A DNA stretch of 64,000 nt from Pecten maximus (lineage: Eukaryota): positions 15,996,001-16,060,000 of the forward strand of contig NC_047023.1 in NCBI RefSeq assembly GCF_902652985.1, read 5' to 3'. Shown piece after piece: positions 46,450 to 48,914 of the stretch. The notes beneath the pieces are model-generated. The model was not told the origin of the DNA, made no database searches, and saw only the letters and a list, made by a program, of their open reading frames with translations. Numbering within the stretch: the stretch's first letter is position 1; each line of letters opens with the position of its first letter. Made by a program: the position numbers and the translations under genes.

Positions 46450-48914
46450 TCAATTATATGATTTAGCGGGTATATTTGGCCGAACTTGGCTTCCCCTGGT
46501 TTCTGTCCATCCATCGTCCCTCCTGTCCGACCATATATTACTTCCTTGACCCCAGCGACGTTCTGTGCGTCCGGCCACAACGTCGTCATTTCCTCGAGTG
46601 CCTATATCCGGTCCACCGAAACGATCCGCAACGCCTGATCCGACTCTTCTCCCTGATACAAAGTCCTCAAAACCAAAACCGACACCTCTTCTTTTGTTGC
46701 CTACTACTCCGGCTCCTTTTCGTCCGGACACCACACCATCAAATATAGCCCCTCCTCTACGTCCGGACACCACACCATCAAATACAGCCCCTCCTCTACG
46801 TCCGGACACCACATCATCAAATACGGCCCCTCCTCTGCGTCCGGACACCACATCATCCAATACGGTCCCTCCTCTACGTCCAGAAACCACACGTTCAAAT
46901 ACAGCCCCTCCTCTACGACCGGAGAAGCCAGACTCTATCCTACCTCCACTTCCAGAGACCCGTCTGCCTTCACCATCCACACCAGTTTTGGCTATAACGC
47001 CGACATTTGCCTGACCTTTAATAATGATAAGAAACACTTGTACAATTTCTTAGGTTTAAAGACAACTTTTCTTTTGTTTTATCTGCGGCATTTTCCCCGT
47101 AGTTATTGTAAATTCATACCTATTTCATCTGTTAGCAAATGAATAATACGCATTGTCTACCTACAACGATTCTTATTGCAGATTCTGAGGTTTACAGAAA
47201 ATAATAACGTCGATGAATTACGAGACCAAATATAATTATAGCTGTTGGTGAATCGTGAACATATTAATATCATATACCATATCAATTAAGGACTTTTACC
47301 AAACCTTAGTAATTGTTAGATTTGTATAACTTCAGAATTTGTCTTAAAGACCGAAAATGTGTGTGATAAAAGAAACAAATGCCCGGGCAGATAGACAACG
47401 TAGACGGATTTTATAGAACAGCTAAGTGTCAGAATTAACTGATTTTTTGCTGTCTTCCAAGTGTCTGAATGGAAAAAGATCAATCCGTTGTTCTGAAACA
47501 ATGCAATCGCACATAACAACTAAAACAAGCGACTCCAATGTGGTGAGTAAAATGAAATACAAATTAAGTTCCCTTAAAGTATTACTATGTGTTACGGTAG
47601 TTAGGAATTAGTTATTCAAATTGTTAGAACCTCTCACACCTGCGTGGCGCGAGGTAATAATCTTGAACCCAGGGGTAAGATTTATTTAAGGTTTTCCTCT
47701 CTACAAAACCCTTGGATTAAGATTAATTAGTTATGTCATCCACTTGGAGACAGAAGGATTTCCACCTGACGGGGAAGATTCTTAGATTTTTAACTTACGA
47801 AACACGAGGCTTACGACCCCAAAGGAGGGGGGTGATTTATTTTGTTTTTCCATTAAAACCGTCTTATGTTTTTATGTTGACGTGACGTGATTGTCAACGT
47901 TACGTCATTGTATTGTTGATAGCTTGTCTCAACCCTTGGGTGAGATGAGAAAATCTCACACCGGTAGAATTGTGGATGTCCCTGTCAAGGTTAAGAGAAA
48001 TATCTGTCTACATTACACAAGGTTAATGTTTTCTCCTACACTTTCCTGTTGTTAGATTCCTAACGTTGTAATGGTGAACTAAATTCATATCGACATAATA
48101 GAGTCGTGAAACTTTTAGATAAAAGGGCCTTTTCTTTGAACAGAGAAAGATATACTTAAGGGTCATCTATATAGGCAATCAACGTTGAATTTCAAACACG
48201 AATATATATCTACAAATTTGCACAAAAAAAGCAAATAAATGGCATAAGTGAGGCATTTTAATCAATAAAAATGCTCCTATATCATACTTTTAAAATATCT
48301 GATCATTGAAAGAAGGGCCTTTATAAGACAGATTATTAAACTAGTAAGTTTTACAGTAAACTCAAAGATTGAACACTTTTTCCTAAAAGTAGTCTTCTAA
48401 AGTGTCTAGAGTTCTTTTTAGTGTCTGACAGGAGCATTTTTGATGTTTGAAATATCTCCTTAAATGCCATATTTGTGTGATATAGACACTTGTGAGCAAA
48501 ACGACATGTCTATTTTTTGCATTATATGCGATACAAATGAGTTAATTATGTCCCCCCCGAAACATTAATTTTTCTATGTTTTGTTGACAAACAACTTAAC
48601 AAATTGTATGCCAACAGCAGTCCCACGGTTTTCTACGATACATACTTAAAGTCATTATTGAAATAAAGTACGTTATCAGACATTTTTCCTGGCGAGACAA
48701 AAGATAAACAACAAAACCTAAGCATAGCCTTCATATAAACACTTTGTGTGCAGTATTTTCAGATTAAATTTGATTTACCACCATTGCATGTTGAGATCAG
48801 ATTATAAACATTGACTAAATGATAAACACTGGTCTCACCGTAGGATGGACGTCTGTAGGAGTTACATAGCACACAGGCGATCAGACAGGCGACTGTGAAC
48901 AGCAGTTGTAGCAT
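46450..48914 (-). CDS. Secreted Gly/Arg/Val-rich repeat protein, class D, 213 aa, with (SGRRGGAVFDxVV)n; coding exons 48914-48839 and 47015-46450
   Basis: MLQLLFTVACLIACVLCNSYRRPSY|GQANVGVIAKTGVDGEGRR... GTGAG donor, ATTAAAG acceptor, phase 1 in frame; exon 1 donor after 49514; TATA 49581-49588. Confidence 0.88.
47625..48005. mobile_element. Interspersed repeat fragment in class D intron 2 (possibly a non-autonomous DNA element)
   Basis: Imperfect internal inverted repeats (TAATCTTGAACCCAGGGG / CCCTTGGATTAAGATTA); higher GC than flanks. Confidence 0.35.

Follow-up and report, generated by a model that had tools for sequence, protein, structure and literature searches.

A scallop gene with repeated Gly-Arg-Arg sites probably encodes a secreted repetitive protein of a scallop-specific array

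Does a short peptide, repeated in tandem behind a secretory leader and closed each time by glycine and a pair of basic residues, identify a hormone precursor, or can the same layout arise by the copying of a single unit in a structural gene? The question is raised by a gene of the scallop Pecten maximus lying in the 64,000-nucleotide stretch analysed here (the window; positions 15,996,001 to 16,060,000 of NC_047023.1). A sequence-only reading of this locus had proposed a multi-copy precursor of amidated decapeptides, with a repeat protein of 39-bp units that stays unprocessed as the fallback. The 213-residue product does combine a predicted signal peptide with a repeated peptide closed by Gly and a dibasic pair. 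In our assessment it is nonetheless probably a secreted, disordered structural matrix protein of a scallop-specific array, which stays largely intact and owes its hormone-like look mostly to tandem copying, so that the fallback fits best: the unit number is variable and the sites outside the tandem units have been lost.

The coding region lies on the minus strand, where a 76-nt exon (48914-48839) with a phase-1 GT donor is joined to a second exon (47015-46450) to give a 213-residue product identical over its whole length to the Pecten maximus database protein P0001. The Pecten maximus gene is spliced: contigs from all four runs, belonging to four studies, skip the 1823-nt intron exactly and show the GT-AG joint expected of spliced RNA, the runs being of guessed RNA origin or unlabelled and carrying no tissue labels. 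A second intron in the 5' UTR (48938-49513) is bridged by a contig in one of the four runs. Three contig differences fall within the coding exon and, from codons read by eye, none alters a GRR. The gene comprises the following features:

49581..49586, minus strand: TATA-like box (TATAAA) seen in the sequence, with the transcribed piece of the 5' exon about 45 nt downstream; putative function
49514..49537, minus strand: non-coding 5' exon of at least 24 nt; joint 48937-49514 with GT..AG ends, in one of four runs
48839..48937, minus strand: signal exon with ATG at 48914, residues 1-25 and phase-1 donor; homologous to the array signal exon (17.1 bits, codon-shuffle P=0.0016)
47016..48838, minus strand: GT-AG intron of 1823 nt, bridged in four of four runs
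46450..47015, minus strand: mature-protein exon, residues 26-213 and stop, from the sequence and the splice joint
46960..46968, minus strand: GRR, residues 42-44, not part of the tandem block; absent from the orthologues
46729..46923, minus strand: five in-register 39-bp units (13 residues each, SGRRGG-x-x-x-x-x-VV, residues 57-121), which account for five of the eight Gly+dibasic sites
46717..46725, minus strand: GRK, residues 123-125; no orthologue keeps Gly+dibasic here
46645..46653, minus strand: GRR, residues 147-149, in an older unit copy; G-R-G in three of three orthologue sequences
46054..46449, minus strand: 3' UTR, from the sequence, with AATAAA at 46075-46070; contigs end at 46054-46094 in three of four runs

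The protein is rich in glycine (21%), arginine (14%) and valine (14%), with a pI of 11.0, a net charge of about +13, 13 dibasic pairs and no acidic spacers; its mature chain lacks cysteines, Tyr and Lys amount to 1.4% and 1.9%, and Trp is confined to the C-terminal third. The signal peptide proposed earlier is borne out to the extent that the leader is hydrophobic and that structure prediction models residues 2-19 as a helix, and it stays a prediction. Beyond this helix no fold was predicted (mean pLDDT 38.6, from an alignment of four rows), no Pfam family matched the mature exon at E<=1, and the ESM Atlas gave no usable match for the mature exon and sub-0.9 leads only for the whole protein. 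P0001 carries the database label 'DEAD-box ATP-dependent RNA helicase 9-like', a mis-annotation due to low complexity, as the protein has no helicase domain; a DEAD-box helicase identity was rejected because the mature exon yields no Pfam family at that threshold and has neither the DEAD nor the helicase C domain.

All eight Gly-Arg-Arg/Lys sites claimed in the sequence-only reading are present, as seven GRR (no GKR) and one GRK, along with KRR at residues 133-135, and the seven peptides that it named are all read correctly in the product. The sites start at residues 42, 58, 71, 84, 97, 110, 123 (GRK) and 147. Tandem Repeats Finder (TRF) reports the 39-bp unit 5.4 times at 46713-46923, and since five of the sites are copies of this one unit, the eight are not independent. 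Against 1.33 sites expected at the same composition, eight were observed (none of 20,000 shuffles reaches this number); once the five tandem units are collapsed to one, four sites stand against 0.99 expected (P=0.009), two of which (123 and 147) resemble additional copies of the unit. When 13-residue units are drawn at random from the composition of this protein, 9% contain Gly+dibasic; among random 39-bp units, 1-7% contain it in an open frame. Across the five units the GRR codons show silent changes only (n=2) and residue changes affect five positions in the decapeptide, numbers that are too small for a test. In the three species the peptide units mostly end in F-x-G/D-hydrophobic-V/A-S. Furin prefers an arginine at P4. 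The tandem sites have no such arginine, and their cleavage would therefore require PC1/PC2-type enzymes of regulated secretory cells.

In database sequence searches, relatives of the protein are limited to three scallop genera, being found, besides Pecten, in Mizuhopecten (P0002 and P0003) and Ylistrum (P0004); P0002 and P0003 are near-identical sequences from one species, and the comparisons given here count both. The number of tandem units varies between the scallop orthologues (5, 4 and 2), and the Gly+dibasic sites number eight in Pecten, four in each of P0002 and P0003, and two in Ylistrum. Conservation of G[KR][KR] in orthologues, which had been put forward as a check on the precursor proposal, is split. 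GRR is present in every tandem unit that the orthologues still have (4, 4 and 2 sites), but the three sites outside the tandem block (42, 123 and 147) are retained as Gly+dibasic in 0 of 9 comparisons, and the majority of the dibasic pairs beyond the block lack conservation. The RR to RK change, noted earlier as keeping the site dibasic, has counterparts in the orthologues that read SRQ, SRK without Gly, and GQKR. The older unit copies at 146-149 and 173-176 retain G-R in 8 of 8 cases but the second basic residue in only 1 of 8; selection thus seems to act on a hydrophobic-S/T/A-G-R motif rather than on the dibasic pair. The idea of a multi-copy amidated precursor partly fails this check, keeping the tandem units on its side and losing the sites outside them.

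The gene is a member, by its signal exon, of a large array (G000:C9, about 15,893,000-16,117,000) in which one homologous signal exon precedes low-complexity mature exons of five or more kinds. A DNA profile of this exon, seeded by 11 neighbouring signal exons with the present gene excluded and run over 464 kb, detected 32 intact copies, spread from window position -102,857 to +120,675 (about 224 kb), plus one with a stop. The present gene's exon scores 17.1 bits, against a best score of 8.3 outside the array, and is the most diverged member by this profile. In eight array genes that were compared, an acceptor lies 14-25 nt before the ATG, in the 5' UTR, and a phase-1 donor follows the leader; the present gene has both features. 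Gene models were obtained from 28 of 31 starts tried (three gave none), those of the neighbours being predictions. The neighbours fall into short Arg/Asp/Trp-rich, Asp/Tyr-rich, Gly/Ser/Phe-rich and Gly/Tyr-rich low-complexity proteins, the last with GGY repeats and a basic tail with terminal Tyr. They too are Arg-rich, with RR or RxxR shortly after the leader. G[KR][KR] is absent from 24 of the 27 other modelled members and occurs once in three, and 26 of the 27 end in Tyr. The gene itself sits near the junction of an Arg/Asp/Trp block and a Gly-rich block; in Mizuhopecten (the Yesso scallop) its orthologue OWF53965 and the Arg/Asp/Trp-class OWF53962 come from contigs of equal length and have near-adjacent accessions, and the linkage of the two appears to be conserved. 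The modelled neighbours within the window include:

7250..7912, minus strand: Arg/Asp/Trp-rich array neighbour, 78-residue model, predicted; further copies start at 582 (minus), 10638 (plus) and 18699 (plus)
41304..41835, minus strand: Asp/Tyr/Arg-rich array neighbour, 84-residue model, predicted
51707..52315, minus strand: Gly/Ser/Phe-rich array neighbour, 127-residue model, predicted
56913..57586, plus strand: Gly/Ser/Phe-rich array neighbour, 126-residue model, predicted; partial contig cover, joint near the intron

Sequence comparison gives no more than borderline signs that the mature part is homologous to the neighbours: in HMM best-domain tests two sequences reach P of about 0.04-0.06 and a third is not significant, the hhalign probability is 0.4%, and Smith-Waterman P values for 16 pairs range from 0.002 to 0.31, against 0.006 for one control pair. 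A resemblance, striking by eye, of the repeat unit to the single N-terminal RR-x-x-S-hydrophobic-F/L-D-G motif of the Arg/Asp/Trp class was not significant by HMM, profile windows, hhalign or DNA identity, and P0006 (see below), used as a control, scored equally in some of these tests; the resemblance is retained as no more than a lead. As the unit-motif tests are borderline or negative, array membership rests on the signal exon and position. An oyster GRWRN precursor was considered as a match for the GRWRN-like tail of the neighbours and set aside, the paper tying GRWRN to the scallop Vamide precursor in the part consulted (PMC8398477). Within the open-access literature searched, neither a description of the array nor a mention of a neighbour's locus tag was found. 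The array is probably a better lead than the single gene.

How does the protein compare with genuine precursors? A catalogue of 63 precursors from Yesso scallop ganglia, for which NpSearch (signal, cleavage, Gly, repeats) was used, offers a reference (PMC5996578, catalogue and Fig. S1). The Yesso scallop orthologue is absent from this catalogue, although absence from a curated list is no proof, and three orthologue strings gave no matches in six supplementary files of the same paper. Like the present protein, the LASGLVamide and MIP (PxFVamide) precursors have a leader and tandem short peptides closed by Gly and a dibasic pair; they differ in using mainly GKR, in having acidic spacers and in coming from a ganglion transcriptome, whereas the present protein is basic and has no GKR. 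By eye, GKR predominates in the multi-copy precursors of Fig. S1, not one of which relies on GRR alone, and no peptide motif is common to the present protein and the LASGLVamide or MIP precursors beyond chance-level resemblance. On the other hand, scallop MIP1 has GRR at four of nine sites, and the LASGLVamide precursor is built of spacer-free 13-residue units in a 10+3 layout (both Fig. S1), which makes the layout of the present gene compatible with processing. No matching oyster neuropeptide family is named in section 2.7 of PMC8398477, and no paper mentioning the gene's accessions or repeat strings was found in the open-access literature searched.

Look-alike repeats outside the scallop orthologues bear on how easily such a layout arises. 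The best non-scallop match is P0006, an unnamed ENA record of 590 residues with a leader, 17 GKR and no GRR, whose decapeptide ends in FDEFIA and which, judged by its sequence, looks like a genuine multi-copy amidated precursor. It has the period of 13 in common with the present protein and aligns in register with its repeat, with F-D-x-hydrophobic-hydrophobic-S/A-G-basic-R at corresponding positions; its length and its GKR sites set it apart, and nothing beyond the repeat is matched. An array of satellite-like kind from the scallop genome matches the P0006 repeat better (E 4e-11) than does the present gene (1e-8), and we therefore read the match between gene and P0006 as a period-13 coincidence and reject P0006 as a homologue. 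No clear scallop counterpart of P0006 was seen among the loci translated, and no relevant paper on a P0006-type motif was found in the open-access literature searched. P0007, P0009-P0011, P0013 and P0016-P0018 were set aside as unrelated repeats, and P0008, P0012, P0014 and P0015 lie outside this comparison.

No second copy of the gene was found in the genome: 13 of 14 matches were weak, and five loci that were translated are tandem arrays elsewhere. Three satellite-like arrays elsewhere in the genome have 39-bp units that read X10-GRR or X10-GKK; as they were found with queries bearing the pattern, they show that the pattern arises easily and not how frequent it is. The array L006/L014 (G000:C10, about 20,741,000-20,745,000) has a unit with GRR and L055 (G000:C17, about 21,656,700-21,658,500) a unit with GKK, and both mimic an amidated precursor. 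By eye, the C10 unit and that of the gene have a run of about 14 bases in common, probably because C10 was selected with this query. L061 (G000:C17:9,640,868-9,641,570) reads a 10-residue unit followed by GRR ten times, together with decayed variants; no leader was seen in frame, and it is likely to be a satellite, though there is a slight chance that it is a true precursor exon.

Secreted repetitive low-complexity (RLCD) proteins are an already-known molluscan kind. As characterized in the parts of PMC4897951 and PMC4759782 consulted, they have a leader and a Gly-rich repeat, are restricted to particular lineages, gain and lose repeats by slippage and are encoded by tandem genes. The shematrins and KRMPs of Pinctada are the best studied, and the present protein is like them in its signal-like leader and Gly-rich repeat. 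In the broad sense it belongs to the same kind, given the leader with a low-complexity repeat, its occurrence in three scallop genera only, the unit numbers of 5, 4 and 2 and the array of 32 signal exons, to be compared with five clustered shematrin genes. Shematrins are Pinctada-specific (PMC4759782, part consulted), and the consulted part of PMC3896809 describes their GnY repeats and RKKKY/RRKKY-type C-terminus, as well as the Lys/Trp domain of KRMPs right after the signal peptide. Shematrin or KRMP identity is rejected for the present protein, which lacks all three: there is no GGY, the chain ends in KSYN (KLYN and RSYN in the orthologues), and Lys is scarce and Trp distant from the leader. 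Database sequence searches returned no match to a named shematrin or KRMP. Neither gene nor array was found in the supplements of PMC5854119, PMC8382897 and PMC6281612, files that may lack such identifiers or text sequences.

The matrix reading that we favour would work as follows. A single GRR-bearing 39-bp unit would have been copied in tandem, producing most of the prohormone-like sites, and the protein would be secreted by its leader, disordered, and deposited largely uncut. Its alternation of cationic (SGRR) and hydrophobic-acidic (AVFDxVV) blocks might promote condensation with itself, with acidic partners and with other array products, and the Gly/Tyr-rich array members could supply tyrosines for possible cross-linking with it. 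By analogy with the molluscan RLCD families, the destination may be the shell, the periostracum or another mantle-made material, a guess that on our analysis falls a little short of an even chance.

Against this stands the proposal of a true multi-copy precursor, in which a PC1/PC2-type enzyme would cut at Arg-Arg, a carboxypeptidase would trim the ends and PAM would amidate, releasing GGxxFDxVVS-amide decapeptides as neural or glandular signals from a gene that arose in a structural array by repeat expansion. A signal-like leader followed by five perfectly spaced G-R-R units speaks for it, as do the unchanged GRR of all orthologue tandem units across three species, the common F-x-G/D-hydrophobic-V/A-S ending, the 10+3 layout of LASGLVamide and the GRR use of MIP1, the in-register match to P0006 with its decapeptide-plus-GKR unit, and the site enrichment that persists after the repeat is collapsed. 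Since the tandem units never vary in GRR, a motif that a real scallop precursor also employs, amidated peptides retain some probability. The flanking sites, however, are kept in none of nine comparisons; Ylistrum would yield a single amidated peptide of different sequence; GKR (0 of 8 sites) and acidic spacers are wanting in a protein of pI 11; the ganglion catalogue and the oyster section hold no such family; a satellite-like array matches P0006 at least as well; and the neighbours almost all lack the Gly+dibasic signal. We consider this precursor unlikely. Rather unlikely, too, is its narrower form, a newborn precursor in which an array member amplified its GRR unit and came to release previously undescribed FDxVVS-amide decapeptides (four to five in Pecten, three in Mizuhopecten, one in Ylistrum).

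A non-signalling secreted cationic proprotein might alternatively be clipped at some of its Arg-Arg pairs into matrix fragments, or into pieces with an antimicrobial or adhesive role in mucus or a coating. Defence and adhesive families typically show large tandem expansions of short genes for secreted cationic proteins; the 13 dibasic pairs, the charge of about +13 and the Arg-rich neighbours with RR or RxxR soon after the leader are also in keeping with this proposal. The tandem sites nevertheless lack the P4 Arg for furin, dibasic pairs elsewhere in the chain mostly go unconserved, and the mature chain, devoid of cysteines, matches no known antimicrobial family in Pfam, leaving this proposal improbable. 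The database name would suggest a helicase or RNA-binding protein of RGG type acting inside the cell. This proposal can draw on that label and on the RRGG words of the repeat, but a product of 213 residues with a hydrophobic leader common to the array, with no helicase or other Pfam family in its mature exon and with orthologues labelled glycine-rich or uncharacterized makes it very improbable.

If the matrix reading is true, one tandemly copied unit can fool motif-based neuropeptide mining, and the array of about 224 kb is a source of candidates for materials of the scallop shell, periostracum or coatings. If instead the precursor proposal holds, the locus would record, in datable form, how a structural gene gave rise to a precursor of multiple amidated peptides.

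Several further observations concern the array and its surroundings. A gene for a Gln/Asn/Arg-rich protein of about 100 residues, predicted to be secreted, occurs twice within it (window 15085-15961 and about 24600-25480, minus strand), with the exon layout of array genes but a signal exon that scores -6.4 bits on the array profile. A recent segmental duplication (window 10263-18272 versus 18278-27737, 93-97% identity) carries array genes, and in the array copy starting at 18699 the second coding exon appears to be frameshifted. Non-coding tandem repeats with units of 49, 34 and 42/127 bp lie between array genes, at 28968-29461, 50289-50497, 16088-16567 and 25607-26086. In the right part of the array, a frame of 744 residues (window +109,463 to +111,694, minus strand) is by eye reverse-transcriptase-like and of LINE type. 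About 44 kb from the left end of the array (window -146,526 to -146,119, plus strand) lies a frame resembling the first exon of a class A GPCR, which covers TM1-TM3 and ends in a CIER motif, its family being judged by eye.
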